A stretch of DNA of 64,000 bases. Source: Acidobacteriota bacterium (GTDB lineage: Bacteria; Acidobacteriota; UBA890; WLXD01). Made by a program: the position numbers and the translations under genes. The notes beneath the pieces were generated by a model. That model ran no database searches. It worked only from the letters and a program-made list of their open reading frames with translations, and was not told where the DNA came from. Positions 28,293 to 59,759 of this stretch are shown here, piece by piece. The DNA is taken from NCBI GenBank assembly GCA_965248695.1, contig CBDFKD010000002.1, positions 4,992,001 through 5,056,000 on the forward strand, written 5' to 3'. Every line of letters begins with the position of its first letter. Positions within the stretch are counted from its first letter, which is position 1.

Positions 28293-28300
28293 GAGCCGCT

Positions 28301-30480: not shown

Positions 30481-30560
30481 TGCCGGGTTCCATTGCGTTT
30501 CCGAGAAGGGGAGCGAACATAGACATACGAAGCCTACCGCGCGATCGTGGGAGGCTCCAA
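30481..30560 (-). repeat. island repeat copy (promoter plus MEPG start)
   Basis: Minus strand TTGGAG-N18-TAGGCT, then GCAATGGAACCCGGCA about 50 nt downstream. Confidence 0.65.
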
Positions 30561-30596
30561 GGGAGCGACAGAGGAGACCCGCATCGGGCGCGCTTG

Positions 30597-31526
30597 CTAG
30601 AAGATTACGGAGCCTTGGCCACGCTCGTCGATCATCTTCTGGATATGCGCTACGAGCAGCTCTCGTCGTTCCAGGAGCGCGCCCATCTGTTCCGAAACGA
30701 GGTAAGCGTCGATCGCCGCGCGGATCTGGTCGTCGGTCACCTGCTGTAGCAGCTCCCACATGCGCGGACTGCACCAGACGATCTCATCGCCGTAGCGCAG
30801 GTCCTTGTGCACCTGGAATGCGCGTGAGTGATCGATCATCCAAAGTGCCCATTCAGTGTCGATAAGGTAGTTGCCGCGGTTCCGGTCGTCGTTGAAGATC
30901 AAGCTGTCGAATATGCGCATCGCCTGGATCTGGCGCTGCCAGTCGGCCGTCACGGGTGGAGGTCCCGCCGCTCCTTGGCCGGCCTCGCCGAGCGTGCGCT
31001 CTATCCAGAGCTGCACGCTTCCATCGATGCCGTTGACCCTGCGGCACACGGTGGGCGGTACGTTGTCGAGCTCGAACAAGCGCGCCATCTGATAGGCGGC
31101 GCACTGGCCCTTGTAGCTATCGTAGTAGCGGCTGAAGCTGCGGCCGTTCATGCGGCGGGCCCGCGAGACTCTGTCGATCTCGTGAAACGCGCCGTGCGCT
31201 CGAACACCGTCACGCTCGAGTACCAGGCGCTTGATCCCAGTGACGCCGATACCGACGTTCTCCGATGACACGACAAGGGCCGTACGCAGGAACTCCGTCG
31301 CCTCGTCGTAGGTCCGAAAGGGTAGCGGCGTACCATTCGGCCCCGGCCACGGGCGGGCAATCTCTGCATCGTCCTGAGATCGATGCACCCAGGCGAGCGT
31401 GCTCGTAGTGAGCGCCGGCGATAGCACCAGAGCCACGGCGGTGGCCGCGAGCAGAACACTCCGGGCCGCCTTCACGCGGCGCGCGGTCGGATGGGTTCTC
31501 TCTTGAGCGCTGATGCCGGGCTCCAC
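30597..31526 (-). CDS. secreted PI3/PI4-kinase-fold (HipA/CtkA-like) protein
   Basis: AAY...L...VPPTV.R, GSVQLW, FDSLIFNDDRNRGN, IDHSRAF; signal-like LLAATAVALVLSPAL. Start uncertain (GTG 31526 or 31475). Confidence 0.65.
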   Translation of the reverse strand: MEPGISAQERTHPTARRVKAARSVLLAATAVALVLSPALTTSTLAWVHRSQDDAEIARPWPGPNGTPLPFRTYDEATEFLRTALVVSSENVGIGVTGIKRLVLERDGVRAHGAFHEIDRVSRARRMNGRSFSRYYDSYKGQCAAYQMARLFELDNVPPTVCRRVNGIDGSVQLWIERTLGEAGQGAAGPPPVTADWQRQIQAMRIFDSLIFNDDRNRGNYLIDTEWALWMIDHSRAFQVHKDLRYGDEIVWCSPRMWELLQQVTDDQIRAAIDAYLVSEQMGALLERRELLVAHIQKMIDERGQGSVIF

Positions 31527-31594
31527 GGCGCTATCACAGAGGGGTGGGCGAAGCGCCTGAAGCCTATCGCCAGAGCCGGCGAGATCCAACGGAG
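31514..31594 (-). repeat. island repeat copy (promoter plus VEPG start)
   Basis: TTGGAT(31589-31584)-CTCGCCGGCTCTGGCGA-TAGGCT(31566-31561); GCCGTGGAGCCCGGCA at 31529-31514. Confidence 0.85.
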
Positions 31595-31638
31595 ACGGCA
31601 GGGTAGACACGACCGGCCTTCGCCGGGGAATACCTGCC

Positions 31639-31872
31639 CTACTTGTGCTTCTCGCGTCGCTCCCCATAGCGCGCGCCGCTCAACGAGGCGGAGAGGGTGT
31701 GGTTGCCTTCGTGACACGCATACTCATAGAGGGCCTCGTCGAATCGCGTGAACGGAACCCCGCCTCCCCGCGGGGCCACCTTGGTCCAGTGCCCCTGGAG
31801 ATCCGGGTGGCCGTGCACCGTCCTCGGCAGTTGCCACTCTCCGCGGTCGGGAGCAGCGTTTTGCGCCGCCAC
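31639..31872 (-). pseudogene. internally deleted remnant of a secreted hypothetical protein
   Basis: N-terminal PRTVHGHPDLQGHWT joined almost directly to C-terminal LYEYACHEGN; these motifs are normally far apart. Confidence 0.55.
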
Positions 31873-31898
31873 GGTCGATCACAGCGTCGCGCCGGAAA

Positions 31899-33455
31899 CT
31901 AGTGAATGAGCAAGAGCTCTTGTTGCGGCGGAGACAAGCGCGCTACTCCACTTGCAGTCGCAATCGCCTGCTCATGGTTCCAGAACACCAAGTACTGGTC
32001 TTCGCCTTCGTCCGCAGGTGACGGCAGATAGAAGAAGTACTCGAGAACGAAGTGGTGGTTGGGCGAGAGCGGTACGTCGAAAACCCAATCCTCGCCATAG
32101 GAGCCCATTCTGGGGCCCAAGCCGGTATCGAACCGCATCTCACGCGCTCCTTTCCCCACCCCGTGAAGGTCGAAGGTAACCCGCGTACTCTCGGGGTCGA
32201 AGTTCTCAGGATAGACGTGAGAACCGCTGTCCCAGCACCCGGCCTCCATATATTGATACTGGCCGAGAATCGGCTTCAGGAAGCACAGGCTCTCGAAGAG
32301 GTTCGGCTGAACCATGGGCAACTGGGGATCTCTGACAATGATGCCGGCGTCGGCAAGCTTCTGCTGGTAGCCCTTCATTATTTCGCGGGGGGTAAGGCCC
32401 GCCCGGACGGTCTCCGACAGGATCTCGGCGATCGTCAGATGTTCCGCCCAGAGCTTCTCGATGTCGGCCGGCGGTGCGCTCTCTCCGTCACGCAACACGT
32501 AGGCGAAGAGTCCCTGGCTCGGTGCTGCAAGAATGTCGCCTCCTTGAACCACGCTGTCTTCCCAGCTTTCGCTCCCTCCCCGTTGCGATGGTTGGGTGCG
32601 CATTCTGCGAAAGATAGTCATGCCCAAATCGCGAGTCTTGGTTGCGCCCGGCACGATGTCGGCCAGAGCGCGCCTCAGGCGTTCGAGCTCTTCCGCGCGC
32701 ATCTTCGTGAGCAGCTCGACTTCGCTCGGCACCGGGCTGATGTTGTAGTCCATGATCAGGTATTCGGACGACACCAGCCTGTCGGCGTACTCCTCACCGA
32801 GCTCCTCAGCTAGCAGGAGGTAGTCCGCGTGCGAAATCCCATCATCTGTTCTGGTGGAGGTCGCCCACGGAGCGAGCTGGTCTCGGTAATTGACCGCGAT
32901 GCGCTCCGGGTCGCGCGCTTCAACGAAGGCTCCGAGGCCCTTGAATCGGTGGTCATACTCCGTCATCGGGCTCGACAAGGGTTCGCCATAGACAACCGGT
33001 TCGCCGACGATGTCGTAGGCTCCGAGCGCTTCCATCGGATCCGAGTAGTCGCTGCGGCTCTTCGCCAGTTCAGTCGACCAGTCCGAAAACACGACACGCT
33101 GTGAAGCTCGCCAGCGACGCCCGATAATCGCCCGCTCGATCCGATCACCACCACGGTCCGTGAAGACGAAGACACCGGAGGTGCTGCCTAGCTCTTCCGC
33201 CCCGAACGGATCGGGGATGGCGGCGCGCATCACATGGACCCACATGTCGATGCCACGGTTCCGCATGATCTTCGGCACGATGAGGTCGAACTTGTCCCGA
33301 CGAATCTGGTTGTTCTCCTCGCCGTAGCGTGAGGAACCTACGGGCTCGTCTTGAGCCACGGCCGCGGCAGCAAACAACGTTGCCAGACCGAATAGCAGCA
33401 ACAGGCTCAGGGCGCTGGCGCAAATCGTCCGGGAACCTGTCGAAGTGCTCTGCAT
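31899..33455 (-). CDS. secreted M24/Xaa-Pro aminopeptidase-like protein
   Basis: Signal peptide; RRDKFDLIVPKIMR..GIDMW, RDPERIAVN, DGISH, HGVG, HEQA. Confidence 0.6.
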   Translation of the reverse strand: MQSTSTGSRTICASALSLLLLFGLATLFAAAAVAQDEPVGSSRYGEENNQIRRDKFDLIVPKIMRNRGIDMWVHVMRAAIPDPFGAEELGSTSGVFVFTDRGGDRIERAIIGRRWRASQRVVFSDWSTELAKSRSDYSDPMEALGAYDIVGEPVVYGEPLSSPMTEYDHRFKGLGAFVEARDPERIAVNYRDQLAPWATSTRTDDGISHADYLLLAEELGEEYADRLVSSEYLIMDYNISPVPSEVELLTKMRAEELERLRRALADIVPGATKTRDLGMTIFRRMRTQPSQRGGSESWEDSVVQGGDILAAPSQGLFAYVLRDGESAPPADIEKLWAEHLTIAEILSETVRAGLTPREIMKGYQQKLADAGIIVRDPQLPMVQPNLFESLCFLKPILGQYQYMEAGCWDSGSHVYPENFDPESTRVTFDLHGVGKGAREMRFDTGLGPRMGSYGEDWVFDVPLSPNHHFVLEYFFYLPSPADEGEDQYLVFWNHEQAIATASGVARLSPPQQELLLIH

Positions 33456-33530
33456 GTGCGTCAGACCTGCCTCGGTTGTCGTAGAAGTGCCCGTAGCCTG
33501 CTATGGGTCACTGGTTTCTCGCAAGCGCCG

Positions 33531-33617
33531 GCGACTTCGTCAGAACAGGCGATAACCAATGGAGAGATCGGCAAGAGTACAAGCGGCATCGGCGAGAGGT
33601 GACCGTCGTAGGCTCAG
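33531..33617 (-). repeat. degenerate island repeat copy including tRNA-Glu-like core
   Basis: TCGTCAGAACAGGCGATAACCAATGGAG (22/28 to the 54322 copy), then GGCATCGGCGA...GTCGTAGGCTCAG aligning with GGCAACGGCGA...GTGGTAGCCCCAA. Confidence 0.6.
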
Positions 33618-33628
33618 ATCCGCGGGGA

Positions 33629-35557
33629 CTAGCCGTGGCGCATCTGCAAGAGCTCGCCGACGGCGCGGTGAGCCTGATCGATGGCGATCTCGGTCATGGC
33701 CCGTGCGCCGGTGTCGGAGTTGGCGATGGCGATCCGGCCACGAGGATGCCGGGCGGTGACCCAAGGGGCACGCTCGGGCGGCACCTCATCGGGCCTCCAC
33801 GCGATCTGACCCGTCTTCGGATCGAGGCCTTTAGCATAGCCGTGCGGCCAGCGGTTCACCGTGATGGCCTCGATGTCGCGCGCCGGGTCGAAGCCTCCGG
33901 CGGACAGTATCCGGCCGAGCTGGTCCCTGATCTTTCGCTCGAAGGTCGCGAACGTCGTCGCCAGCAGACCATGGCGCGCGGCCTTCCACTGCTCAGCCAC
34001 GGACCGCCCGCGGGCCTCCGGTACGAGGGGAACGCGCCACATGCGCACGACGATGGGCTCCTCGGGCGTACCAGCGTGTCGGTAGTTGCCGATGCTGATG
34101 GGTGGCGGCACATTCACGTTCTCGAAATAACTCCCCGGGCAGCGCACCCTGCTCACACCGAGCCTGGCGAAGGCGGTCCAGTTGCGGATCAGGACGTTGG
34201 TGTAGACAAGGGGCGACTTGAGTGCGTTCGATAGCGCCTGTTTTTGAGTATCCGGCAGCTCCTCGCAGATCAAAGGGATCACGGCGTTGTAACAGGCGAG
34301 CACGCAACGACCGGCGCGAACGCGCCGGGCGTGGCCGTCGCGGACGTAGGTGACCTCGACCTCCTTGGCGGTTCGCCGATCGCCACGGTGAGCTACCCGC
34401 ACCGCTGTGCTCTCCAGACGCACGCGGACAGCCGAGCCTTCCCGATCGAGCTTGCCGTAGTCGAACGGAGCGTCGACGATGTCCTCCATCGTGCTGCCGG
34501 GAGCGACCTCTGGGATCAGCGACCGGACGATCAGACGCGCGATCGACGCGTTGCCATCCGGAAACTGGAAGAAAGCACGCTCCTCGCGGTTATCATCGGC
34601 ACCATCATCGTCGTCGCCGAGCCCCAGCCCGGTGGTCCCAGGCCAGCGGCCGGCGCCGAGCCAGGCGGGGACGCCATCGAGGCCGATAGTCCAACCGCCG
34701 GAGGTCTCGAGGAAGGAGATTGCCTCGCGACCTATCTTGGCCACCTTCAAGAGAAAGTCTTCGTAGCTCGTGTTGCGAAGAAACTCGACCTTTTCCTCCA
34801 AGCTGAGGTGTGCCAGGTAATCGATGTTCGGCTCGTGGAGTCTTACAAGGTCATCACGTGCCGTTTCGGACAGGGGCGCGCGCGCCAGGAACTCGCGCCA
34901 AGAGGGCTCGCCTTCGCCTACCAGCAGCCGATCGGTGCCGAACGTTTCGCGGTCGAAGAAAACCGATCTGCGCAGGCCAAGTGAGCTGTACAGATCGCTA
35001 TCGACGAATTCGGAGTAACGGCTTACGTCGATGCCAATCCCGCGGATCAGGCGCTGGGCTCCTTCACCGTACTCGTTCAGGTTGGAGATAAAAATCGTGC
35101 CGCCATGTGACAGGAACATCCGACCGTCGAGCCGGAACTCGTTGCGCTTGGCATGACCGCCGAAGTCGTCGTGGTTGTCGAGAATCAGGATGCGGGCGTC
35201 GGGAACCGCTTCCTGGTAGAACCACGCCGCTGCGAGGCCGCTGAGGCCACCGCCAACCACGACCAGATCGTAGAGCTCACCCGTCTCCTCCGCGTTGTCC
35301 CAGCGCACGCCTTCGACAAGCTGGTGGGCAACCTCGTAGGAGCCGTCGTGGCTGCCGCGCATGCCGGTACGGATGGGTGGGTACGCGTCGGCGAGGGTCT
35401 GTGAGACCCCTCCCGGAGCCTCAGGGCTCGCCAAGGCGTTCGTCTGCGCCCACGGGAACGTGAGACTGCCGCTTAGCGCAACGCTGACACCGGAGACGAA
35501 GTCGCGACGGTTAATCTCCCGGTGCATCCCGAGATCACGATCATCACTGCTGGACAT
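33629..35557 (-). CDS. Tat-exported FAD oxidoreductase, spermidine dehydrogenase (SpdH)-like, copy 1
   Basis: DRDLGM...RRDF leader, YPP..GMRGSH, GGGLSGL, DNHDDFGGHAKRNE, FPDGNA, ITVNRWPHGY, IANSD. Confidence 0.85.
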   Translation of the reverse strand: MSSSDDRDLGMHREINRRDFVSGVSVALSGSLTFPWAQTNALASPEAPGGVSQTLADAYPPIRTGMRGSHDGSYEVAHQLVEGVRWDNAEETGELYDLVVVGGGLSGLAAAWFYQEAVPDARILILDNHDDFGGHAKRNEFRLDGRMFLSHGGTIFISNLNEYGEGAQRLIRGIGIDVSRYSEFVDSDLYSSLGLRRSVFFDRETFGTDRLLVGEGEPSWREFLARAPLSETARDDLVRLHEPNIDYLAHLSLEEKVEFLRNTSYEDFLLKVAKIGREAISFLETSGGWTIGLDGVPAWLGAGRWPGTTGLGLGDDDDGADDNREERAFFQFPDGNASIARLIVRSLIPEVAPGSTMEDIVDAPFDYGKLDREGSAVRVRLESTAVRVAHRGDRRTAKEVEVTYVRDGHARRVRAGRCVLACYNAVIPLICEELPDTQKQALSNALKSPLVYTNVLIRNWTAFARLGVSRVRCPGSYFENVNVPPPISIGNYRHAGTPEEPIVVRMWRVPLVPEARGRSVAEQWKAARHGLLATTFATFERKIRDQLGRILSAGGFDPARDIEAITVNRWPHGYAKGLDPKTGQIAWRPDEVPPERAPWVTARHPRGRIAIANSDTGARAMTEIAIDQAHRAVGELLQMRHG

Positions 35558-35768
35558 GGGTCCTCCGGATTCTCTGACGCCGTTGCTGCGCGGACCGTCG
35601 GTTCTCGAGTCCCTAGCGATTCCTCTCGTGTCCAAACTCTACCGTTCCGGAGCCTAACGCCCAGTTGGGCTGAGTGCCACGATCGTAGGAGGTGCGCTCG
35701 TTGGCGGGGGTTCCTTGAGTGGAAGCGGCCATGACGGCAACGTCGTGATCGCGATAGGCTCCGACGCC

Positions 35769-39435: not shown

Positions 39436-39577
39436 CGTTCCTCCCTCAGTCCGCGTCGCTGACATCGGATCCATCTCGCGCAGAAGCGACAATAGGCTGG
39501 AGATCGTCTGATCTCCCTGACCGACTATCACGAATCGGCGAGCACTGGCAGTGTGACGATGATCGCCCGTGCGGCCT

Positions 39578-41614: not shown

Positions 41615-41625
41615 GGGCTGATCCC

Positions 41626-42231: not shown

Positions 42232-42285
42232 CTACGGGTCCGTCGGCACGAGTCGCTGCAGCTCCTCGAACCAGTTGGTGATGGC

Positions 42286-43482: not shown

Positions 43483-43484
43483 CG

Positions 43485-44585: not shown

Positions 44586-44604
44586 GCGATCGGGCCTGTT
44601 TTGG

Positions 44605-44679
44605 TGCCGGGTTCCATGGCCTTATCAAGGAGGCATAGGTGACCGGCTGAGCCTAGCGATGGAGCAAGCGAGGGTCCAG
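44605..44679 (-). repeat. island repeat copy (promoter plus MEPG start)
   Basis: CTGGAC-N18-TAGGCT, then GCCATGGAACCCGGCA at 44620-44605. Confidence 0.7.
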
Positions 44680-44690
44680 GGTTCGGTTGC

Positions 44691-49459: not shown

Positions 49460-49504
49460 CGCGAACCAGCGGACCTCAACTCTTCCCCAAACCCGCGGAC
49501 CGGA

Positions 49505-49921
49505 TCAGATCCAACGCTTGCTTTCGGTCCGCTTCGAATACCAGATCATGAACGCTGCCACTACCGACGACATTAGAGTCCCGACCCAGACCTCGATTGG
49601 AACGTCGGCTGCGCCGAGGAAGGGGAACATCTGCACAACGACGCCAAGTAGCGACGCGATGAACAGGTAGTACGCAGCCGACTTCCTGAGCAGAAGCAGG
49701 AGGCAGCCAAGCGCGCCGCCGAAGACGCCGAGCGCAAAAGCTCCGGTAGCCCATACGGGCCGGCTTTCGATGATCGCCCGGTACGACTCGGACGTGGAAG
49801 CGAGCACGTCCGCATCCATCTGCGAGAAGAAGTTCATGATGCCCAACACATTCCAGATCAGCGCCACAGCGCCGATCGCCCAGAAACTCCACGGAACACT
49901 TCCAGCCGACTTGTCGCTCAT
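49505..49921 (-). CDS. 4-TM membrane protein
   Basis: PWSFWAIGAVALIWNVLG...PVWATGAFA...GCLLLLLRK. Confidence 0.75.
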   Translation of the reverse strand: MSDKSAGSVPWSFWAIGAVALIWNVLGIMNFFSQMDADVLASTSESYRAIIESRPVWATGAFALGVFGGALGCLLLLLRKSAAYYLFIASLLGVVVQMFPFLGAADVPIEVWVGTLMSSVVAAFMIWYSKRTESKRWI

Positions 49922-49930
49922 CGCATCCCC

Positions 49931-50004
49931 CGAGTCCCTGCTGTCTATCGCCCGGTAACGGGCGAGCGCCGCAAGCGTATCGTCAGCGCCGCCGAGTTCC
50001 AACG
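49931..50004 (-). repeat. island repeat copy (promoter)
   Basis: TTGGAA(50002-49997)-CTCGGCGGCGCTGACGA-TACGCT(49979-49974); its flank also aligns with the 31514 copy. Confidence 0.85.
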
Positions 50005-50168
50005 AGTCATTGCCAACTCACAAGCGCTCACGTATTTTGCCGCAGTCGCTCGGCTAGTGCCCGGCTGCTGCCTCGATCTGGCAGCGCGATGGCGTGGCGG
50101 CAGATCGTGGGCTGGTACCTACACGAGGACATGGAGCGGCTTCGACCTGTTGGCGCCATGGCCAGCGC

Positions 50169-50855
50169 CTAATCGGATGCGATCAAGCTCATCGCGAGGC
50201 CGCCGTTCGCGTCTGCCCGCACCTGCACCTCGCGCTGGAGGATGCGGTCACCCGCAACTCCCCACGCTGTTAGCAGGTACGACTGCTTCGGGATGTCCTC
50301 GACGCGAAAGCTCCCCTGATCATTAGCGATCGCCGCATATGGGTGCGAGACCACGAGGATGAGCGCCATCATCCCCGGGTGCATGTCGCAGCTGACGCTA
50401 TAGGGGCCGTTCTGCTCGAACCGGTGCTCGATCTCGTCGTCTTGCCTCAGGTCAACGTTGATGACCACGGCCTGTGTCTGCGCCTGTGTCACGCGCACGT
50501 TGTGCTCGGTGTCGTCGCCGTTGCCGAACCGCACCTGCTGACCTCTCGCGGCGATCGCCATCCGCGGAGCGAAGGTGCGGCCGAACTGCTCGATCGCGAT
50601 CGCCGTTGCCGGTGCCTCGCGTTCCGGTGCAACCGACGCTGCCTCTGCGAGAGGCTCCAACGACACGACCGCCGGGCCGAGCCCATCGGGGAGCGTCGCG
50701 AGCAGCGTTGCCGCCGCCGCGTCGGGATCAGCCGAGCTGTCGGGCTCGGGAGCGGCCGATCGCGAGCCGCCGGGAGCACACGACACCAGCACGAGCGTGA
50801 TGACCGTCGACCCCACCATCGGTCGCCGTTCCCGGGGGGCACGTCGCGAGTTCAT
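50169..50855 (-). CDS. cupredoxin-like lipoprotein
   Basis: LVSC lipobox; F.N.D..EHNV and CDMHPGM type-1 copper-like ligands. Confidence 0.7.
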   Translation of the reverse strand: MNSRRAPRERRPMVGSTVITLVLVSCAPGGSRSAAPEPDSSADPDAAAATLLATLPDGLGPAVVSLEPLAEAASVAPEREAPATAIAIEQFGRTFAPRMAIAARGQQVRFGNGDDTEHNVRVTQAQTQAVVINVDLRQDDEIEHRFEQNGPYSVSCDMHPGMMALILVVSHPYAAIANDQGSFRVEDIPKQSYLLTAWGVAGDRILQREVQVRADANGGLAMSLIASD

Positions 50856-50862
50856 GCCGCGA

Positions 50863-50980
50863 AGTCTAACGAACTGTCGGTCCTCCAGTCAGCGGGCACG
50901 GCGGTGATGAAGCTACCGAGCTCCGATGCTAGTAGCCCCAATGGCGAAGATGTTGAACACCACGCAGAGTTCGTGGCGCG
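50863..50980 (-). repeat. island repeat copy with tRNA-Glu 3' core
   Basis: GTAGCCCCAATGG at 50932-50944 (12/13 to the tRNA end), then CGAAGATGTTGAAC similar to the 54390 copy; TAGACT -10 at 50868-50863. Confidence 0.8.
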
Positions 50981-51043
50981 GCTCGCGAAGGCGGGGTAGG
51001 CGCTACTGACGTTCGCGCGACCCCAGGCGTTGCATGTTGCGGT

Positions 51044-51628
51044 TCAGCGAGCCGGTCGCAACATCGGCACGAACGGTGGTGACGTTCCCACTTGGACCTC
51101 GCCGAGCACCTCGAAGCCGTGGCGCTGATAGAGGGAGACGTTTCTCGGGTTCGTCGATTCCAGATATGCCGGCGTCTGATCATGGTCGCATTGCTGCGCG
51201 GCATACTTCATGAGCGCGCCCCCGATCCCCTTTCCCCGATACGCCGGGTCAACCCCGATGAGCGGCAGATACCAGTGCGGCTCGGCAGGGTGGTATCCAG
51301 CCAGCTGCTCGAACACTGCGTAGAGGTCGGTGCGGACCGACTCCGAGACGGTACTCTCAATGACCTCGCCCAGAGCTTCCTCATCAGGGTGCACATCGGG
51401 CGGCAGCCAGAGGGCGGTGCCGGCGCATTCCCCGGTGCAGTGGGCACTACCGTGGGCGAAGGAGCTGCCGGCAAACGCACGCGCGAACCGAGGCATGTTC
51501 GTCAGATACTGATGCGGATCCGGATAGCACCATCTCGCCACCGGATCGGCGACGAACGCCAGTACGATCGCATCGATTGCCGGACTCTCGTCGGCCTGAG
51601 TCGTCGTTCTGATCTCAGGGATCTCCAT
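51044..51628 (-). CDS. GNAT family N-acetyltransferase
   Basis: AFVADP, HWYLPLIGVDP..RGKGIG, AYLESTNPRN..LYQRHGF. Confidence 0.9.
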   Translation of the reverse strand: MEIPEIRTTTQADESPAIDAIVLAFVADPVARWCYPDPHQYLTNMPRFARAFAGSSFAHGSAHCTGECAGTALWLPPDVHPDEEALGEVIESTVSESVRTDLYAVFEQLAGYHPAEPHWYLPLIGVDPAYRGKGIGGALMKYAAQQCDHDQTPAYLESTNPRNVSLYQRHGFEVLGEVQVGTSPPFVPMLRPAR

Positions 51629-51769
51629 GGCTTCCTCCGGAGGCTGATCTGGTTCCCGTGTCCGCGATCGCGCGGATCGCGCTCCAGCTTGTCTAGTGGT
51701 CTCTCGCACTGACTGGCGCGAACAACGCAGCCGTGAAAGACCTACGAAGCAGGACGATGGGCGCCCAGA

Positions 51770-51870
51770 AGCGTATCGTCAGCGCCGGCGAGATCCAACG
51801 CCAGGTGTAGAGAGGCTATCGGGCGGCAGTTGAATTGAGGTAGTAGGCCCAATCACCCCGAGTTGGAACC
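51770..51870 (-). repeat. island repeat copy with promoter and tRNA-Glu-like core
   Basis: TTGGAT-CTCGCCGGCGCTGACGA-TACGCT (51798-51770) and GTAGGCCCAA at 51843. Confidence 0.85.
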
Positions 51871-52202
51871 GGATCTAGGAAGAGCTCCGAGGGCTGGATC
51901 GGCTACTTGCCTGATTCGGAGGGCTGAGCGCGTTACGGGGCCGTTGGCACGAGCCGCTTCACCTCCTCGAACCGGGTGGTGACGAGCGTCACGCAATGGC
52001 TACTGGCCCGCATCTGCGCGCGGCTTTCGCACTCCTTCAGTTCCTAATACTCGAAGGACTTGCCGAGGAGTCGCGGGCCTGACTTCTACTGTCCAGGCAT
52101 AGACGGGCCGAGCCACACGAACCGGTACTCCCACGAGCAGCGAGAGCAGCTACGTATCTCCGACGACGGTGTGCTGGGTCCGCTTGAACCGATTCGCTTG
52201 TC

Positions 52203-54203
52203 TTACCGTATCTCGCTCGTACTGGAGGCTCTTCGCCGGGCGCGGCTTCGAACAAGCAGCTGCTCCCGCACCGCTCGATGTGCCTCGTCGATAGCCGAGT
52301 CGGTGTGTGTCGAGGCAGCGGCATCGGAGTTGGCGATGGAAATCCGACCGAATCGCCGGCTCCCGACTACGCACGGCCGATCGTCGGGTGTGAACAGCGC
52401 CCACTCGATGGGATCGTCCAGGGTGTTGTAGCTGTATGCATAGCCGTGCGGCCAGCGATTCACCGTGATCGCTTCGATGTCGCGAGCCGGGTCGAAGCCC
52501 CCACCCTCCAGCATTCGACCGAGCTGGTCGCGGATGTTGCGCTCGAATGTCTCGAAGCTCGTGGCCAACAGATTCTCTCGCCCGATGCGGTGCTGCTGCT
52601 TCTTCGGGTGTCCAGGAGCGCAGGGCGTTCTGGACATGTGCAGAATCATCGGGTCCTCGGGTGACCTGGAGGGTTGGTACTCACCGAACTGCACGGAGCG
52701 GCCAAGGCTGACCCCGCTGTGGTACATCCCCGGCGCGGTCACCCGTGAGACTCCGAGGTTCTTGAAGGCCTTCCAATCTCGGGTAAGGACGTTGGTGGAG
52801 ACGAGCGGCATCTTGACACCATACTTGAGCGCCACCTTCTGCTCGTCGGACATCTCTGGGCACAGGTGTGGGATGACCCCGTTCCAGCAGCCCATCACAC
52901 AGTGACGCGCCCGTACCTTCTCGGCCTTGCCAGCGCGTAGATAGGTAATCTCGACTTCGCGGGCCACATCGGGATCGCCCAGGTGCCGGACGGAGACGCC
53001 CATGCTGTTGAGGCGAATCCTGGCGTCGGAACCCTCGCGGTCTAGGCGGTCGTACCTGAGTCGCGACGTCATCGAGTCGTCCAGCGAGGTGCCGGGAAGC
53101 GCGTCGGGAATCATGGCGCGAACCAGCAACCGTGCCAGCGTCGCGTTGCCGTCTGGAAAGTGGATGTCCGGTCGATCGTCCCACTCGTTCTCGCGACCGT
53201 GTTGCCCGCCGCCGATGTGGGCAAGGGGGCCCACCAGGGGAAGGGTCTCGAGGTTCATCCCCTGGAAGCCGGGATAGCCCTGGGCCCATGCGTAGAGTGC
53301 CGGATGGGCGTCGATGCCAACGCAGAAGCTACCCTTCGGGCGGTCATCGAAGAACGGGATCACATCCGAGTGAACCTTGGCCAGATCGAGCAGAAAGTCC
53401 CGGTAGCTGATGCGTGCCAGGCGCTCCTTCTTGTCCGCATCCGACAGTCCGGGCATGGTGTCCGGGTTCGCATCGTCGTCGTAGAGCCGCGCGATGTCCC
53501 TCTGCGCCTCCGGAGACATCGGGGTCTTTGCGAGCCACTCGGCCCATGCACCCGATTGCCCGCCGCGTCCCATCACCAGCCGATCCTCGCCGAACACCTC
53601 CTTGCTGAAGAACGTGGCGTTGCCCAGGCCCAGCGATCCGTAGAACCTCCTACCCGCGGCGCTGGTGGCATAGGCGCTGTCGATGTCGATGCCGACCGCA
53701 GCGAGAAGCGTCCTGCAGACGGCGCTGTAGTGGCCCACAGACTCGAGGTACGACGTACCGCCGGGCAGCATCAGCGTACGGCCTCGATAGGTCATCTCGT
53801 TGCGCTTGGCATGGCCGCCAAAGTCGTCGTGATTGTCGAGGACAAGGACACGCGCACCGCGGCCAGCCGAGGTCAGGAAGAAATAGGCTGCCGAAAGCCC
53901 GCTCAGCCCCCCACCGACCACCACGCAATCGTAGCGCTCACCGGTATCGGCGGCATCGGTCCAAGAGTTGCCGTCGCGAAGCGCATGGCCGGCCTCGAAG
54001 GAACCGGGGTGGCTGCCGCGCATTCCGGTCAGGGCCGGGGGGTAGTAGTCCTGCGCGAGTGGCGCATAGGGCTTGCCCTCGCGTGCCGACGACCAGCCCG
54101 GTGCGATGAGCGCCCCCCCGATCGCAACCCCCACGCCGTTAACGAAGTCGCGCCGGGTGATATCACGGTGCATCCCTAGATCACGATCCTCACTTGTGGG
54201 CAT
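52203..54203 (-). CDS. Tat-exported FAD oxidoreductase, SpdH-like, copy 2
   Basis: Same motifs as copy 1 (DRDLGM, TRRDF, DNHDDFGGHAKRNE, FPDGNA, TVNRWPHGYAY). Confidence 0.87.
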   Translation of the reverse strand: MPTSEDRDLGMHRDITRRDFVNGVGVAIGGALIAPGWSSAREGKPYAPLAQDYYPPALTGMRGSHPGSFEAGHALRDGNSWTDAADTGERYDCVVVGGGLSGLSAAYFFLTSAGRGARVLVLDNHDDFGGHAKRNEMTYRGRTLMLPGGTSYLESVGHYSAVCRTLLAAVGIDIDSAYATSAAGRRFYGSLGLGNATFFSKEVFGEDRLVMGRGGQSGAWAEWLAKTPMSPEAQRDIARLYDDDANPDTMPGLSDADKKERLARISYRDFLLDLAKVHSDVIPFFDDRPKGSFCVGIDAHPALYAWAQGYPGFQGMNLETLPLVGPLAHIGGGQHGRENEWDDRPDIHFPDGNATLARLLVRAMIPDALPGTSLDDSMTSRLRYDRLDREGSDARIRLNSMGVSVRHLGDPDVAREVEITYLRAGKAEKVRARHCVMGCWNGVIPHLCPEMSDEQKVALKYGVKMPLVSTNVLTRDWKAFKNLGVSRVTAPGMYHSGVSLGRSVQFGEYQPSRSPEDPMILHMSRTPCAPGHPKKQQHRIGRENLLATSFETFERNIRDQLGRMLEGGGFDPARDIEAITVNRWPHGYAYSYNTLDDPIEWALFTPDDRPCVVGSRRFGRISIANSDAAASTHTDSAIDEAHRAVREQLLVRSRARRRASSTSEIR

Positions 54204-54315
54204 AGCCTAGCCGCTCCAGGTTCTCAAACGCGGGAAGCGTGCGAAACGTCGACTCGTTACCAGGCTCGACCGAAGTGCAAATCGCATCCAGACTCTGACG
54301 TCGGCGAGCAAGGGA

Positions 54316-54417
54316 AGCGTATCGTCAGAGCTTGCGAGATCCAACGGAGGGAGTAGGAAGAGGCTGCGGGCAACGGCGAAACGGAGGTGGTAGCCCCAAC
54401 GGCCAGGATGTTGAACC
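54316..54417 (-). repeat. best-preserved island repeat copy (promoter plus tRNA-Glu 3' end)
   Basis: TTGGAT-N17-TACGCT (54344-54316); CAACGGCGAAACGGAGGTGGTAGCCCCAACGG versus CAACGGCGAAATAGAGGGAGTAGCCCCAACGG at tRNA-Glu. Confidence 0.9.
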
Positions 54418-54439
54418 ACATATCCAGTACGTAGCGCGC

Positions 54440-54512
54440 CCCACCCGCTTGTCGAGGATCTCGGTCAGGATGTCGCGATAATCGATCGTGATCTCTAGAT
54501 CCCTGCACCGTC
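54440..54512 (-). pseudogene. C-terminal fragment of a DUF1501-like protein
   Basis: RDLEITIDYRDILTEILDKRVG resembles the DUF1501 C-terminus. Confidence 0.45.
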
Positions 54513-54608
54513 CGCATGAAAGGCTGTACCGGCCAGCGAGGCGCGTCATCTCGACCCGTCGCGGCCGTCAAGCGGAGCGGCCTGCCTGTCCATTGTAGGC
54601 TGTGTCTG

Positions 54609-55037
54609 ATGCAGATCCACCGGGAGACGCTGGAGCGCGAGACCGCGCCCGATACCGACATTCATGACCTCACCGACGAGGTGCGGGCCGTCATCGAGCG
54701 CTCGCGTGTGAAGCAAGGCCAAGTGCTCGTCTTCACGCCAGGCTCGACCGCCGGCGTCACCGTCATCGAGTACGAGAGCGGCGCCGTGGCCGATCTAAGG
54801 CGGGCGATCGACCGGCTGGCGCCCACCGGCGAGCCCTACGATCACGACGCCCGCTGGGGCGACGGCAACGGTTACTCGCACGTGCGCGCCGCGCTGCTCG
54901 GCCCCTCGATCACCGCGCCGATCGTCGACGGTAGGGCGGTTCTAGGCACCTGGCAGCAGATAATTCTGTGCGATTTTGACAACCGGCCGCGAACCCGGAA
55001 AATCGTCGTGCAGGTGATGGGCGTCGTGGTTCCGTAG
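54609..55037 (+). CDS. YjbQ family protein (secondary thiamine-phosphate synthase)
   Basis: GSTAG, NGYSHVRAALLGPS, LGTWQQI...DFD. Confidence 0.9.
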   Translation: MQIHRETLERETAPDTDIHDLTDEVRAVIERSRVKQGQVLVFTPGSTAGVTVIEYESGAVADLRRAIDRLAPTGEPYDHDARWGDGNGYSHVRAALLGPSITAPIVDGRAVLGTWQQIILCDFDNRPRTRKIVVQVMGVVVP

Positions 55038-55245
55038 CCTTGCCGGCCGCTTAGTCAACCCCCTCTCTCACCACCCGCCCGCAAAGCTAAAGCTAACGAA
55101 CGAGCTGGGCGGGCGGAGGTAGTCGATTCAGCAGGGTAGGTGTAATTGCGCGGCAGTCCGTTGTTCGGGATGACGCCGGATGGCATCACCTAAGCCGCTG
55201 TGTTCCATGCCTTGTCATTGGTTGCCCGGGTAATCTCCAGGAATT

Positions 55246-55641
55246 TCAGCTTTCGGCATCGTCCGGGAGAGCGTATCCACCCGATTCGTCGTTAACTTCG
55301 TCGCCAACCAGCGGCGGGTTGAAAATAGCAATGGCGCGCACTTCGGTATCCAGGTTGTAGCGGTGACGCTCATGTTTGTCGAAAGCATAGAAGACTCCCG
55401 GCTCCAGTCTATAAACGTCCCCGGTCTCGATGATCTCGACAGTGCCGGTTCCCTCGAGAACGTAAACGGCCTCGATGTGGTTCTTGTGCTCGACCTCGAG
55501 GTCGATGCCTGCCGAGCCGACGGCCTCGGTTACGGTGAAGCCCAAGTTGTCGGACGCGACCGCCAGGCGGGCGCTCACGAAACCATCCGCTTCGACGAAA
55601 TTCGGCGTCCCCTTCAATTGTGCAAATGTACGAAGAATCAT
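55246..55641 (-). CDS. ectC: ectoine synthase-like protein (solitary EctC)
   Basis: SARL....DNLGF, HKNHIEAVY...G.G, PG..Y.FDKHERH, FNPPL.G.E...SGGY. Confidence 0.8.
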   Translation of the reverse strand: MILRTFAQLKGTPNFVEADGFVSARLAVASDNLGFTVTEAVGSAGIDLEVEHKNHIEAVYVLEGTGTVEIIETGDVYRLEPGVFYAFDKHERHRYNLDTEVRAIAIFNPPLVGDEVNDESGGYALPDDAES

Positions 55642-55837
55642 CCTGAGGTTCCCTTTGCTGGTTTGATATTCGTAGCTGGCACTATCGCTGGCGAAGTCTT
55701 CCGGCAGCACGTTGATCGAGACATCACGATCGAGAGTGGAACTCCGGGGGCTGCATCGGCTGCTTGCATGATTCGGTGAGGCCGGCTGAGCGCGCTACTT
55801 GTCTGTCGGCGCGAGCCGGTTCAGCTCGTCGAAGAAG

Positions 55838-56965
55838 TTAGTTCGTGAGAACCAATCCTCGGCCGACGAGCTTTATGGGATCGGCTCCGGGCTTCGGAAC
55901 GAACTTGCTCAACCATCCGCCGTCCCAGCTGGCGACATAGACGTTGCCGTCCTGGTCCACGTCCATCTGGTGTGGACGCCCGAGGCCACCAGGAAAGCCG
56001 CCCCGCGTCCCGCCGAACGCACCCCAGTGGTACTGGAGGACCCCGTCCAGGTTGTACCTGAGGATCCGGTTCACTGCCGCAGAAATCACCCAGACCGCGT
56101 CATTCTCGTCGATGAAGATTCCGACGGGATCGGTGACGTCGGGCCACTCCTCGATGAACTCGCCGTCTTCCGTAAAGACTTGGATGCGGTTATTGGTCCG
56201 GTCGCCGACGTAGATGCGGTGATCGCGGTCCACGGCAACGCCGTGGATGAGGTCGAACTGTCCGGGGCCGCTCCCGACCGAGCCGAACTCCGACACGAGC
56301 TCGCCGGCCGCGTTGTACCTGGCGATACGACCGTTCTGGTAACCGTCCCCGAGCAGAAAGTCGCCGTCCGGGAGGAAGGTCATCACCGAGGCCTGGCCGA
56401 AGTCGAGCGGTCCCGGGTTCTTGTTCGCCCGTGCCTTCTCCCCGCTCTGGCGCGGGTTGGGGTCGAGGAGCCGCATCACGATCTGTTTGCCGTCGTTGGT
56501 GAACTTGATGACCTGCTCGTGGATGTCCCTGGTTCCTCCGCCGCGCTCGACGAGCCAGATGTGGCGCTCCGGGTCGTAGGGGCTGATGTAGACCTGGTGG
56601 GGAGTGTTGAGCATGGTGTCCCACTGGGTCCAACGCTCGACGATGTCCCCGTTCCCATCGACGACCACCATGTAGTTGGAGCTGTTCGGCCGCTCTTCGC
56701 CTTCGGCGTTCCGGTCGCCCCACACTGCAACGATAATCCGGTTCGGATTGTCAGCCGCCACACCAGAGACCTGACCCCAGGTCCACTCCTCGTCGTGGTC
56801 TGGCGCCGGCTTCCACCAGCCTGCCACCGGATCGTATCCTCCGGTACGGTCGTCCCCGCCCTTGATGACCGCCTCCGGTGCGGCCTGGTCCTCACCAGCG
56901 CAGGCTGGGAGTAGCGCCAGCCCAACGGCGAGGAAGAGGGCCACGTCCATGCGCTTTAGTTTCAT
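55838..56965 (-). CDS. NHL-repeat lipoprotein
   Basis: LPAC lipobox; DGYQNGRI, GPGQFDLIHGVA, DRTNNRIQVF, PHQMDVD. Confidence 0.85.
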   Translation of the reverse strand: MKLKRMDVALFLAVGLALLPACAGEDQAAPEAVIKGGDDRTGGYDPVAGWWKPAPDHDEEWTWGQVSGVAADNPNRIIVAVWGDRNAEGEERPNSSNYMVVVDGNGDIVERWTQWDTMLNTPHQVYISPYDPERHIWLVERGGGTRDIHEQVIKFTNDGKQIVMRLLDPNPRQSGEKARANKNPGPLDFGQASVMTFLPDGDFLLGDGYQNGRIARYNAAGELVSEFGSVGSGPGQFDLIHGVAVDRDHRIYVGDRTNNRIQVFTEDGEFIEEWPDVTDPVGIFIDENDAVWVISAAVNRILRYNLDGVLQYHWGAFGGTRGGFPGGLGRPHQMDVDQDGNVYVASWDGGWLSKFVPKPGADPIKLVGRGLVLTN

Positions 56966-57003
56966 CGTCAAATCCACTCCCGAAAAGGCTTTCATAGACG
57001 CCG

Positions 57004-57990
57004 TGGAGTTGACCCGCTTCCGTGGACACCTTATGGCTAACGCCAAAGGAGTCTGCGATGCGAAGAACACGACCGCCTTATCCGCCGGAGTTTCGCCGGC
57101 AGATCGTCGAGCTAGCGCGGGCAGGACGCAGCGTGCAGGAGCTCGCCGAGGAGTTCGAGCCCTCGTACTGGACGATCCGTACATGGATCAAGCAGGCGGA
57201 TCGAGATGACGGGCTTAGCGCGGCTGGCCTGAGTAGCCAGGACAAGGAAGAACTACGGCGGCTACGCCGGGAAAACCGCCAGTTGAAGACGGAGCGGGAG
57301 ATCCTGGCAAAAGCCGCGGCCTGGTTCGCTCGGGAGACCGGCGCAGTACCCAAGAAGTCTTCGGGTTCGTGAGAGCTCACCAGGCCTGCTATCCGATCGC
57401 CACGATGTGCCGAGTGCTGGAGGTCTCCACCAGCGGCTACTACGCGTGGCGACAACGCCCTAGCAGTATGCGAGCACGACAGGATGCACAGCTGCGTGAG
57501 CAGATCGAGACGATCCATCGACTTAGCCGTGCGACCTATGGCGTGCCTCGGGTACACGCGGAACTGGCCGCCGACGGCGTTCGGGTGGGGCGCAAACGCG
57601 TGGCACGGCTGATGAGCCAGGCGGGGCTGGAGGGTGTCAGCCGCCGCCGTCGGCTGCGCACGACGCGCCGCGGTACTGACGCGCAGCCGGTGCCCGATCT
57701 GGTGAAACGTGACTTCGCGGTCGGTGCACCCGATCGCCTGTGGGTTGCCGACATCACGTACGTCTCTACGTGGTCGGGGTTCTTGTACCTGGCGGTGGTG
57801 ATGGATGCCTTCAGCCGGCGGGTGGTGGGCTGGTCGATGGCCAACCACCTGCGTACCGAACTGGTGCTTGAGGCGCTCAACATGGCGATCTGGCAACGCC
57901 GACCTGAGAGCGTGATCCACCACTCTGATCAGGGCACGCAATACACCTCGATCGCCTTCGGCCACCGCTGCAAGCAGCTCGGTGTACGTC
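57004..57990 (+). mobile_element. IS3-family element, 3'-truncated
   Basis: IRL TGGAGTTGACCCGCTTCCGTGGACA; orfA and orfB; orfB is cut after HHSDQG..Y by the next IS. Confidence 0.9.
57058..57372 (+). CDS. IS3 transposase OrfA
   Basis: YPPEFRRQIV HTH, ELRRLRRENRQLKTEREILAKAAAWFA. Confidence 0.9.
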   Translation: MRRTRPPYPPEFRRQIVELARAGRSVQELAEEFEPSYWTIRTWIKQADRDDGLSAAGLSSQDKEELRRLRRENRQLKTEREILAKAAAWFARETGAVPKKSSGS

Positions 57991-57998
57991 TGACCTGA
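57369..57998 (+). pseudogene. IS3 transposase OrfB, truncated before the catalytic Glu
   Basis: WVADITY, DAFSRRVVGW, HHSDQG; ends at the second IS. Confidence 0.88.
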
Positions 57999-58056
57999 CC
58001 CCCGAAAACGGATCCGGATGTAATCTCACGATCTGGGTCAAGAACGGGAGGTCAGA

Positions 58057-58335
58057 ATGCCGAGTAAGAGGCACAGCGCCGAGCAGATCGTACGCAAGCT
58101 CCGGGAGGCTGAGGTGGAGCTGGCTCGAGGGGCGACGGTCAAGGATGCCTGCCGCAAGCTAGCAATCACCGAGCACACCTACTACCGGTGGCGGCGAGAG
58201 TACGGCGGACTGAAGCTCAACCAGGCCAGAAAGCTCAAGCAACTGGAGAAGGAGAATGCCCGGCTCAAGAGGCTGGTGGCGGAAAAGGAACTCGACCTGT
58301 CGATCCTGAAGGAAGTGGCGGAGGGAAACTTCTGA
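58057..58335 (+). CDS. IS3 transposase OrfA
   Basis: EQIVRKLRE, TYYRWRREYGG, LEKENARLKRLVA, EGNF. Confidence 0.92.
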   Translation: MPSKRHSAEQIVRKLREAEVELARGATVKDACRKLAITEHTYYRWRREYGGLKLNQARKLKQLEKENARLKRLVAEKELDLSILKEVAEGNF

Positions 58336-59216
58336 GCCCAGCTCGGCGGCGAGAGGCGGTGGCACATGTACGGGGGCGGCTGGGCGTCTCGGAGAGGCGG
58401 GCGTGTCGGGTACTGAAACAACCACGCACGACACACCGGTACGTGCCAAGAGAGCCGCAACAGGAGCAGATTTTGACGGAGCGGATCGTGGATTTAGCCC
58501 GACAGTACGGGCGCTACGGATATCGGAGGGTGACAGCGTTGCTGCGCATGGAGGGCTGGTCCGTGAACCACAAACGAGTGCAGCGTATCTGGCGGCGCGA
58601 AGGGCTGAAAGTACCGAGAAAACAGCCCAAACGAGCACGGCTGTGGCTGAGCGATGGCTCCTGCATCCGGCTGCGCCCACAGCACCGGGATCATGTCTGG
58701 GCGTATGACTTCCTGCACCACCGGACGCACGACGGTCGGGCTATGAGGCTGCTGACGATCGTCGATGAGTACACACGAGAAAGCCTGGCGATCCATGTAG
58801 CACGGAAGCTCAACTCTGAGGACGTGCTGGAGCAGCTCGGGAGGTTGTTCGTACACCGGGGCATACCTGAGCACATCCGGTCGGATAACGGACCAGAGTT
58901 CACCGCCGAGGCGGTTCGCGACTGGCTGGGCCGGTTGGGCGTGGGGACGCTGTTCATCGAGCCGGGCTCGCCGTGGGAGAACGGTTACGTGGAGAGCTTC
59001 AACGGCAAGCTACGCGACGAGCTGCTGGATGGAGAGATCTTCTACACGCTCAAGGAGGCAAAGGTTCTGATCGAGAGATGGCGTCAGCACTACAACCGCA
59101 TGCGACCGCACAGCTCGCTGAGCTATCGGCCGCCCGCACCCGAAGCGACGTTGTTGAAGCCGGCTGCGCTCCGCTTCGCCGGCCTCAACAACCTCTTGTC
59201 AGCACCGAGTTACTGA
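58332..59216 (+). CDS. IS3 transposase OrfB (-1 frameshift product)
   Basis: YGYRR, WAYDF, DEYTRE, SDNGPEF, PGSPWENGYVESFNG, YN..RPHSSL. Confidence 0.92.
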   Translation: MSPARRREAVAHVRGRLGVSERRACRVLKQPRTTHRYVPREPQQEQILTERIVDLARQYGRYGYRRVTALLRMEGWSVNHKRVQRIWRREGLKVPRKQPKRARLWLSDGSCIRLRPQHRDHVWAYDFLHHRTHDGRAMRLLTIVDEYTRESLAIHVARKLNSEDVLEQLGRLFVHRGIPEHIRSDNGPEFTAEAVRDWLGRLGVGTLFIEPGSPWENGYVESFNGKLRDELLDGEIFYTLKEAKVLIERWRQHYNRMRPHSSLSYRPPAPEATLLKPAALRFAGLNNLLSAPSY

Positions 59217-59562
59217 GATAAGACATGGTACTAACCGCGGGGTCAGGTCAAGGGCGGGACGGGAGACGCGGACACGCGCACACTTCGGGAGCGACAGGGC
59301 TAGCCGGGACATTCGTTCTCTCTTGGCTTTGTGCCAGGGCTAGCCCACATCCTTGGCGGACGACCGAGGTCACCTGGTTAGCAGCTCTAGGGGCGCTTGA
59401 CCAAGAAAGCTTCGGTGCGGCGGATAGCCGCAAAGTAGCCGATCCTCAGAACACCCGTCGGAGGGCGCATAGTGTAGTTGATTGCCGGGCGGGGGATGAG
59501 CGAGCGAAGGGCGGTTTCGGCATACCCAGTGGGGTCGAGGATCTTGTCGCAGCTGTGTCGAG

Positions 59563-59697
59563 TTCCGGGTTCGATGGCACTGCCGGGCGGAGGTGGAAAT
59601 GCGCCCGAGATCCATCGCCAGCGGAGGCGAGATCCAGCCGGTGGGGCAGGGGATGCACCGGAGGACAACGGCGAAATAGAGGGAGTAGCCCCAACGG
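59563..59697 (-). repeat. tRNA-proximal copy of the island repeat
   Basis: tRNA-Glu 3' end, trailer, degenerate promoter CTGGAT-N17-TGGATC, and GCCATCGAACCCGGAA. Confidence 0.8.
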
Positions 59698-59759
59698 GAT
59701 TTGAACCCGTGCCGCCGGCTTGAAAGGCCGGTGTCCTAACCTGGCTAGACGATGGGGCC
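59686..59759 (-). tRNA. tRNA-Glu(TTC)
   Basis: GGCCCCA/TGGGGCT acceptor, CCGGC-CTTTCAA-GCCGG anticodon arm, GGTTCAAATCC T arm; CCA not encoded. Confidence 0.95.

Follow-up and report, generated by a model that had tools for sequence, protein, structure and literature searches.

Downstream of a pair of tRNA genes in the genome G000, short sequences that resemble a promoter and the 3' end of tRNA-Glu recur beside a series of unrelated genes. The window analysed here is the whole 64,000-nt stretch C2:4992001-5056000 of this two-contig genome, which has 5.89 Mb and about 64% G+C; the named records that come closest to one of its proteins are, by title, metagenome-assembled genomes of Acidobacteriota. 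The window holds tRNA-Lys(ttt) (59805-59878) and its downstream partner tRNA-Glu(ttc) (59685-59759), both on the minus strand, followed by a mostly minus-strand run of genes. A preliminary description of this DNA had read the repeats as small non-autonomous cassettes, stacked at tRNA-Glu by a trans-acting recombinase and each bringing its own promoter. Here we describe the repeats and their distribution, and consider whether the recurring unit may instead be what separates the genes of a multi-copy family of the Ser/Thr-kinase type, namely their intergenic spacer.

Comparisons were made with the congeners G001-G004, of which G003 (contig C22) was the only one collinear enough to be compared with the window; G003 carries 8% contamination. 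Contigs of the runs X1-X4, all from one sample, upheld the assembly across the repeats at 50932 and 51843 (contig 49668-52338, 0 differences) and across that at 54390 (contig 53865-56276).

Cores, boxes and tails downstream of tRNA-Glu

The tRNA-Glu gene scores 66.9 bits against RF00005, and its 3' end (GTAGCCCCAACGG on the plus strand) is the sequence we call the core. A 13-mer from this end is matched at all 13 positions at 59685, in the tRNA itself, and at 54390, and at 12 of 13 positions at 50932, always on one strand; with up to two mismatches allowed, six matches were found against 1.48 expected. At 54390 the likeness extends over 35 nt at 86% identity, including a 22-nt trailer, and, in alignment with the tRNA flank, over 99 nt at 71% (E 1.7e-7 for the whole genome). 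Between the copy at 51843 and the 54390 unit, 105 nt align at 72% (E 6e-11). These four repeats had been correctly noted in the preliminary description, as had the unit lengths of 5295, 2547 and 911 nt, which follow from the core coordinates, and the regular distance between core and -10 box, an offset of 71-74 nt where core and box occur together (three pairs). A fifth proposed core, at 33608, is weak, with a single pairwise match of 80 nt at 67.5% (E 7e-4); it lies with a trailer and a box-like copy (33537-33616, minus strand) between a SpdH paralogue (33629-35635) and a 518-aa gene.

A census of sequences of the type GTTC…TTGGGGCTA in G000 gave five real-looking places: three sites in the window (54390, 51843 and 50932), tRNA-Glu itself and a paralogue of it in another part of the genome. 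The three pseudo-cores in the window all lie downstream of tRNA-Glu and in its orientation, so the link of the cores to this tRNA, as first proposed, is genuine, and the sequence comparisons support tRNA-Glu as a recombination anchor. The pseudo-cores form two families, each set apart from the tRNA by 4-5 inserted nt. The core at 51843 is of type A (GGTTCCAACTCGGGGTGATTGGGGCTAC); those at 54390 and 50932 are of type B (GGTTCAACATCCTGGCCGTTGGGGCTAC), of which C2:5552850 is a diverged copy. We found type A at six places in four of the 11 family genomes searched and type B in eight of the 10 sequences examined; trailer and box follow the core in five of eight type-B copies and three of six type-A copies. 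Type-B cores are always accompanied by an arm and a (degenerate) family tail, that is, by the context of a gene spacer. Besides C2:5552850, cores far from tRNA-Glu occur at G002:C9:2264962 and 2790497 and in G004:C13. Co-oriented series of cores are also present in G002 and G004, and one of the two cores in G003 lies upstream of the tRNA. In an Rfam scan only three tRNAs exceeded the gathering threshold and neither arms nor cores had a match at E<=1, and single-sequence folds of the arms gave only a short hairpin, in arm B.

The promoter-like box has the form CGTTGGATCTCG-N9-10-CGATA(C/G)GCTTCA, with a TTGGAT-N17-TA(C/G)GCT geometry, and is always aimed at a nearby start. A profile built from 20 strict matches, for which a reversed-window control reached 10 bits, detected five strong boxes in the window (31549-31594, 49961-50005, 51759-51802, 54301-54349 and 61540-61580), all on the minus strand and scoring 33-46 bits, together with a 13-bit copy beside tRNA-Glu at 59614-59636. 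The -10 boxes first placed at 54316, 51770, 49974, 31561 and 61547 are thereby confirmed. Those proposed at 44650, 30531 and 35651, like the sequence at 33537, score at most 3.9 bits, below the control, and the traces proposed at 45980-46060, 20571 and 19454 were not detected in the profile scan of the window. Two of the low-scoring sites owe what credibility they have to the 16-mer GCCATGGAACCCGGCA, which comes after 44650 without a mismatch and after 30531 with one.

Across the genome the box profile returned 38 copies at E<=0.05, scattered on both strands (16 plus, 22 minus) with several local clusters, and a tRNA-like core lies upstream of only two of them. This scatter, with 36 of 38 copies lacking a core, is what the preliminary description had named as speaking against its model, and the promoter part of that model does not survive it; the tie to tRNA-Glu belongs to the cores and not to the boxes. 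In ten of the 38 copies the box is followed, after about 20 nt, by ATG GAA CCC GGC and an intact Ser/Thr-kinase N-terminus (MEPGTKLGPYEITEQLGAGGMGEV…); in seven this MEPG start is truncated or fused to other sequence, and 21 copies face other open reading frames (ORFs). Since the box-led kinase paralogues begin MEPGTKLGPYEI, the 16-mer, which occurs with up to one mismatch at 17 genome sites (two in the window), is the start codon and first codons of the family, and not an element of an attachment (att) arm as had been supposed. Among the 'other' box-led ORFs, 10 of the 18 outside the window were scanned against Pfam; nine matched and one had no family, and eight distinct enzyme or membrane kinds were represented (a sulfatase-TPR protein, cytochrome b561, two PQQ dehydrogenases, M42 and M24 peptidases, a Gate-domain membrane protein, an aldehyde dehydrogenase and an alpha/beta hydrolase). 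Copies of the box are clearly homologous (pairwise 93.8% over 32 nt, 91.9% over 37 nt, 85.4% over 48 nt and 72.4% over 105 nt), and the non-kinase copies are alike mainly in blocks of 12 and 16 nt around -35 and -10. What points to a promoter is the position and orientation of the box relative to start codons.

Expanded families of Ser/Thr-kinase paralogues with C-terminal beta-propeller or TPR domains are typical of Acidobacteriota. The box-led family genes here combine Pkinase with PD40 or TPR domains and have a conserved N-terminus and tail; what the window adds to the general picture of such families is a conserved spacer with a tRNA-like core and debris of family gene ends around other genes. 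Where it is complete, the spacer reads, from 5' to 3', tail, arm, core, a trailer homologous to that of tRNA-Glu, box, leader and kinase start, and it is contiguous in this form with arm B in G002:C9 (near 2042500 and near 2265000) and G004:C13, and with arm A in G004:C12. Its parts would be the tail NWF(D/E)ELKRLVPTDP with its stop codon, a 55-65-nt arm of type A or B, the core, about 45 nt of trailer, a sigma70-like box, a leader of about 30 nt and the opening ATG GAA CCC GGC. At the real tRNA-Glu the same order is found, with its trailer, the degenerate box and a degenerate kinase start (59563-59578, two of 16 positions mismatched) making up the 5' end of a kinase-family pseudogene that abuts the tRNA (59253-59684, minus strand) and runs into two nested IS3-family insertion sequences (IS).

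Copies of the tail, about 50 nt long, lie at 42233-42281, 51934-51982, 26981-27029, 55796-55844 and 28284-28311. For some family genes such a copy is the real C-terminus; other copies are orphans directly after unrelated genes (DAO, RidA-like), and one also appears to end a methyltransferase-like ORF. A count by protein pattern gave 18 tail sites with seven orphans, a figure confounded by likely frameshift errors of the assembly. The DAO gene has two paralogues in G000 (87.5% and 83%), and homology to them stops at the DAO stop codon, directly against the orphan tail. Fragments of kinase genes are also seen at junctions, at 55686-55730 in the window and at 13336-13483 in G003.

Following the minus strand from tRNA-Glu, these parts are met in the following succession. 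The pseudogene is interrupted by an IS3-family element (57991-59252, plus strand) with terminal inverted repeats recognised by eye (TGACCTGACCCC...), nested in a truncated second IS3-type element (56999-57990, plus strand; eight genome copies); the two transposase genes (57369-57998 and 58188-59216) lie inside the island. The genome contains the first element 42 times, at full length and 100% identical, and this points to a very recent expansion. An NHL-repeat gene (55838-57184, minus strand) has the family tail TNFFDELNRLAPTDK one frame off its stop codon, and next to it a type-A-like arm and then a kinase fragment (…INVLPEDFASD) occupy 55686-55837 on the minus strand (76% over 106 nt to 51872-51971). 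Beyond a block (54536-55685) that includes a UPF0047 gene (54516-55037, plus strand), the type-B arm and core at 54390-54440 precede a trailer, box and 5' untranslated region (54204-54389) and the SpdH-like FAD dehydrogenase gene (52203-54203; E 6e-132 to PDB 7d9j), all on the minus strand. The SpdH-like paralogues at 33629-35635 and 52203-54203 share about 60% nucleotide and 46% amino-acid identity.

All of the parts that follow are on the minus strand too. The orphan tail at 51934-51982 (…RFEEVKRLVPTAP and stop; 86% to 42233-42281) is succeeded by the type-A arm and core (51843-51925, with GGTTCCAACTCGGGGTGATTGGGCCTAC at 51843-51870), a trailer and 36-bit box (51759-51842) and the GNAT acetyltransferase gene they face (51044-51709), which has no DNA match in G001-G004. 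A degenerate tail end, type-B arm and core (50932-51043) come next, with no box after the core, followed by a single-gene module (50172-50907) that consists of a cupredoxin-like gene and roughly 50 nt of upstream sequence belonging to it, and by the 34-bit box at 49961-50005, which faces a 138-aa membrane-type ORF (49476-49892). Further on, a diverged box with an exact kinase start encoding only MEPGTKTGPIACGMPVG before a stop (44605-44680) forms a kinase 5' remnant upstream of NHL and DAO genes, and the orphan tail AITNWFEELQRLVPTDP with its stop codon (42233-42281) begins 4 nt past the DAO stop codon. Alignment of the 44650 remnant with either kinase promoter in G003 gave scores of just 19-24 and does not support orthology. 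At 31514-31594 a 46-bit box and a GTG-GAG-CCC-GGC start are fused to a non-kinase ORF of 309-356 aa (30597-31667), and at 30481-30560 a diverged box and kinase start (one mismatch) give an ORF of 18 aa, followed downstream by a phosphodiesterase gene (29517-30440). On the other side of the tRNAs, upstream of them, the 33-bit box at 61540-61580 faces a split metalloprotease/fn3 gene whose first codons are kinase-start-like. The split genes at 59918-61391 may be assembly errors, as may the frameshift that divides the threonine dehydratase gene (46149-47764) into two ORFs, where contigs of X1 and X2 have an extra A at 46296/46298.

The locus in congeneric genomes

Contig C22 of G003 is collinear with the window in blocks. 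There the tRNA is directly joined to trailer, box, 5' untranslated region and an orthologue of the SpdH-like gene (95% amino-acid identity; about 94% for the window stretch 54204-54389 against this tRNA flank), and the orthologue of window 31899-33455 comes after. Nucleotide homology between the two genomes, 94% over 2278 nt (window 52136-54402), ends at 54402, the last base of the core. The 5.3 kb between tRNA-Glu and its copy at 54390 (54403-59684) thus constitute an indel whose limits are exactly these two sequences. To that extent the locus behaves as the preliminary description expected. Since tRNA, trailer, box and gene are contiguous in G003, however, the 2547-bp 'SpdH unit' is native flank of the tRNA and no cassette. 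The contents of the 5.3-kb stretch, the NHL gene and the UPF0047 block, lie about 30 kb away in G003, in permuted order and with a kinase 5' fragment at the junction.

The tRNA of G003 at this locus is a hybrid by eye, with a tRNA-Lys-like 5' half and a tRNA-Glu-like 3' half; it lies at L032 5570-5645 (G003:C22:43569-43644), and ARAGORN calls it tRNA-Gly(tcc). It looks like the product of a deletion between anticodon-stem sequence common to the two neighbouring tRNA genes.

Three further stretches are extra in the window relative to G003. The first (49464-52135) holds the 138-aa ORF, a box, the cupredoxin gene, a type-B core, the GNAT gene, a box, a type-A core and a tail fragment, the second (42281-44689) the DAO and NHL genes and the kinase-start remnant, and the third (33405-35768) the SpdH paralogue and the weak unit at 33608. 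At the position of the orphan tail 42233-42281, a kinase-PD40 gene of 951 aa that has a box of its own comes to its genuine end in G003, which indicates that the orphan tails and starts in the window are the ends of family genes whose bodies are gone.

Some other differences from G003 were seen. The S9 peptidase gene and a block of tail fragment and DUF1989 are swapped between window 39522-42280 and G003:C22:29376-34879, and G003 has a full kinase gene between them. Beside the 518-aa gene stands the SpdH paralogue in G000 and the orthologue of the other copy in G003. A stretch of about 250 nt (window 29242-29488) is missing at this place in G003, has several counterparts at 70-88% identity in G002 and G004, and may represent a small dispersed repeat.

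These comparisons bear on the possibility that the boxes are independent sites of one sigma factor or regulator, alike by selection, and the cores unrelated scars. The concentration of similarity among non-kinase copies in the -35 and -10 blocks, the diversity of the genes downstream and the retention of the box before the same gene in G003 are what such a regulon would show. The homology nevertheless exceeds the box, running over 99-105 nt that include core and trailer and on into leader and first codons, and orthologues of the SpdH-like gene in eight more distant records (L070-L076 and L092) have neither tRNA nor box in their upstream sequence (up to 4 kb; 66 nt in L074). The box was therefore acquired by the SpdH-like gene within this genus and is not ancestral to it, and we hold a pure regulon motif to be very unlikely.

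Integrases and a probable tRNA-Glu hotspot

As the preliminary description stated, the window has no integrase; all 13 PF00589 matches in G000 lie outside it, and the 0.9-2.5-kb units gave no integrase remnants in the same search. In congeners, tyrosine integrases do stand beside cores, so the expectation of a recombinase next to the repeat is borne out there. One in G004:C7 lies 75 nt from a 42-nt partial copy of tRNA-Glu that closes a 22-kb island, another in G002:C9 (52% identical to it) lies beside the core at 2042771, 64 kb downstream of tRNA-Glu, and a different integrase in G004:C2 is about 370 nt from a type-A core. The expectation fails for G000 itself, where the best matches of these three integrases have 23-33% identity and no close homologue was found. 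Nor did the assembled contigs of X1-X4 hold credible core-to-core or excision joints, as predicted for circular cassettes; those listed, 20-35 nt long on each side, trace to repeats or to other organisms.

Among the flanks of nine loci with a tRNA-Glu 3' end, compared by eye, those in three genomes of the order, G002 (L009), G008 (L003) and G012 (L008), have tRNA-Glu followed by a related, AT-richer arm of about 100 nt with a twice-repeated word of the type CTTAGGTT. It looks like the arm of one family of integrative elements. The G002/G003 version of this arm has no match in G000.

Such observations invite an explanation by serial accretion only, in which each core marks a past integration of a whole island at tRNA-Glu, older islands being pushed outward, all of them decayed and the neighbouring promoter incidental. 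In tycheposon islands integration is serial, and partial tRNAs and degenerated elements are scattered within the islands (bioRxiv 10.1101/2020.12.28.424599). The locus resembles these and other tRNA-anchored islands in that an intact target tRNA stands at its boundary, co-oriented partial 3' copies and degenerate remnants lie inside, one indel is bounded by the tRNA and a far-boundary 3' repeat (54390-54402), an 'empty' site exists in a relative (G003:C22, one genome with the Lys/Glu hybrid tRNA), and congeners have intact integrase islands of 22 kb and 64 kb at the same tRNA, with the related arm after tRNA-Glu in three genomes. It differs in having neither integrase nor replication module in the window, in an exact repeat of 13 nt against about 40 nt in that preprint (the G004:C7 copy has 42 nt), and in pseudo-cores that form two families in the spacer of a gene family and also occur away from the tRNA. 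The family-specific insertions and arms imply that the type-A and type-B cores were copied from one another, rather than each having decayed from a tRNA end on its own, units of 0.9-2.5 kb are free of integrase remnants, and a homologous trailer and box after three successive cores would be unexpected unless every element had carried them. Accretion on its own thus seems unlikely to us.

Origin of the repeated sequences

The reading we favour, with a probability of about 0.55, is that the window holds a decayed set of kinase-type genes, whose spacer includes a tRNA-Glu-like core, at a tRNA-Glu recombination hotspot, and that the retained boxes are probably captured promoters. One gene of the kinase family would have sat directly behind the real tRNA-Glu, and other members would have had diverged pseudo-cores in their spacers. 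The tRNA-Glu locus would be a hotspot of the genus at which tyrosine integrases place islands at the tRNA 3' end, as they appear to have done in congeners. Insertion sequences, deletions and gene replacements may then have taken out the kinase bodies, leaving 'shells' (core-trailer-box-start, or tail-arm-core) around the GNAT gene, the SpdH-like gene and the NHL and DAO genes; for these replacing genes the retained box is probably a captured promoter. The more conjectural parts of this account are promoter activity, the order of these events and the way in which genes were replaced.

Several observations weigh against it. A scan for E. coli-type sigma70 promoters and terminators flagged no box, and its counts equalled those of shuffled sequence. 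As the tRNA of G003 is itself rearranged, G003 may be the derived form, and 'insertion' in the window is not separable from 'deletion' in G003. The motif TTGGGGCTA is kept in seven of eight type-B copies though the neighbouring bases vary, and left flanks of three kinds and right flanks of at least three kinds adjoin the same core. At G003:C22:8283, arm B and a type-B pseudo-core are joined to the approximately 100-nt arm (G003:C22:8309-8411) that follows the true tRNA-Glu in G002 (78-80%); the identity shared with the tRNA at this hybrid site, 10-13 nt, is too short for ordinary homologous recombination, and the site is the best hint that pseudo-cores may have served as recombination sites. 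Such features fit site-specific exchange at pseudo-cores better than decay. Decay alone is also insufficient for the cupredoxin module (50172-50907; L054-L057), which occurs in five contexts in five genomes, at 95% identity in G004, 94% in G002, 83% in G003 and 81% in G001, with different flanks in each. In none of the other four genomes does a core stand at its borders; just downstream of the module in G002, a partial tRNA-like 3' end was seen. Together with the ends of the DAO homology, these contexts show that gene-sized, sharp-ended modules move in the genus.

An extension of the shells idea would take them as standard landing frames of this Acidobacteriota genus, in which core-recognising integrases or end recombination swap gene-sized modules and promoterless genes are expressed from the promoter of the frame. 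We consider this distinctly unlikely. If true, it would amount to a chromosome-wide cassette-like system without an integron, and to single-gene shuffling and expression by non-integron means in a soil phylum with little genetics.

The stacked-cassette interpretation itself goes further, making units of core, trailer, promoter, gene, tail and arm the objects that a trans-acting tyrosine recombinase moves at tRNA-Glu-like cores, with the promoter in the att arm. The co-oriented series in G000, G002 and G004, the combinatorial flanks around a conserved core, the G003 hybrid site and the integrases 75-370 nt from congener cores are in its favour, as is the GNAT unit, bounded by a type-A and a type-B core and without a DNA match in the four congeners. 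Integron arrays offer a partial likeness, with co-oriented and mostly single-gene units, a recurring short separator and content that varies between relatives. Yet the locus has no IntI, attI or Pc, the head of the array is a tRNA gene, the separator is a direct tRNA-like repeat with a promoter-like box and not a folded attC (the arm folds and the Rfam scan gave no attC-type imperfect inverted repeats), the units have promoter-like boxes of their own, and at least one of them, the SpdH-like unit, is native chromosome. Nearly all boxes are coreless, no unit was found again elsewhere, type-B cores are always part of a gene spacer, the core-adjacent integrases have at best 33% identity to anything in G000, and the one module seen to be mobile is not bordered by cores in other genomes. 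Of the stacked-cassette interpretation, tRNA-Glu as a recombination anchor is retained; the self-promoting units and their recombinase in trans appear improbable, and the evidence does not support a new self-promoting gene-cassette system.

A parallel for the boxes is provided by putative mobile promoters, homologous upstream regions before non-homologous genes (Nijveen, Matus-Garcia & van Passel 2012, PMC3575422). As there, homologous upstream sequence precedes non-homologous genes in one genome with no known transposable vehicle. Most matches here fall below the criterion of that survey (at least 80% over at least 50 nt; PMC3575422) and none strictly passes it; moreover, the shared part reaches the start and first codons in some copies, and the kinase parent family is identifiable. 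The locus is thus one that combines traits of serial integration at a tRNA with traits of mobile promoters, and the family from which its promoter modules derive can be named.

If the decayed kinase set is the right reading, the locus is an ordinary tRNA-linked flexible island, and it carries the caution that a recurring promoter beside a tRNA scar can mimic a cassette system. A large paralogue family would seed its genome with promoter/start modules of about 100 nt and tail modules of about 70 nt, and pseudo-tRNA ends would persist as possible secondary attachment sites. That such modules come to flank unrelated genes would be a concrete route to promoter capture.

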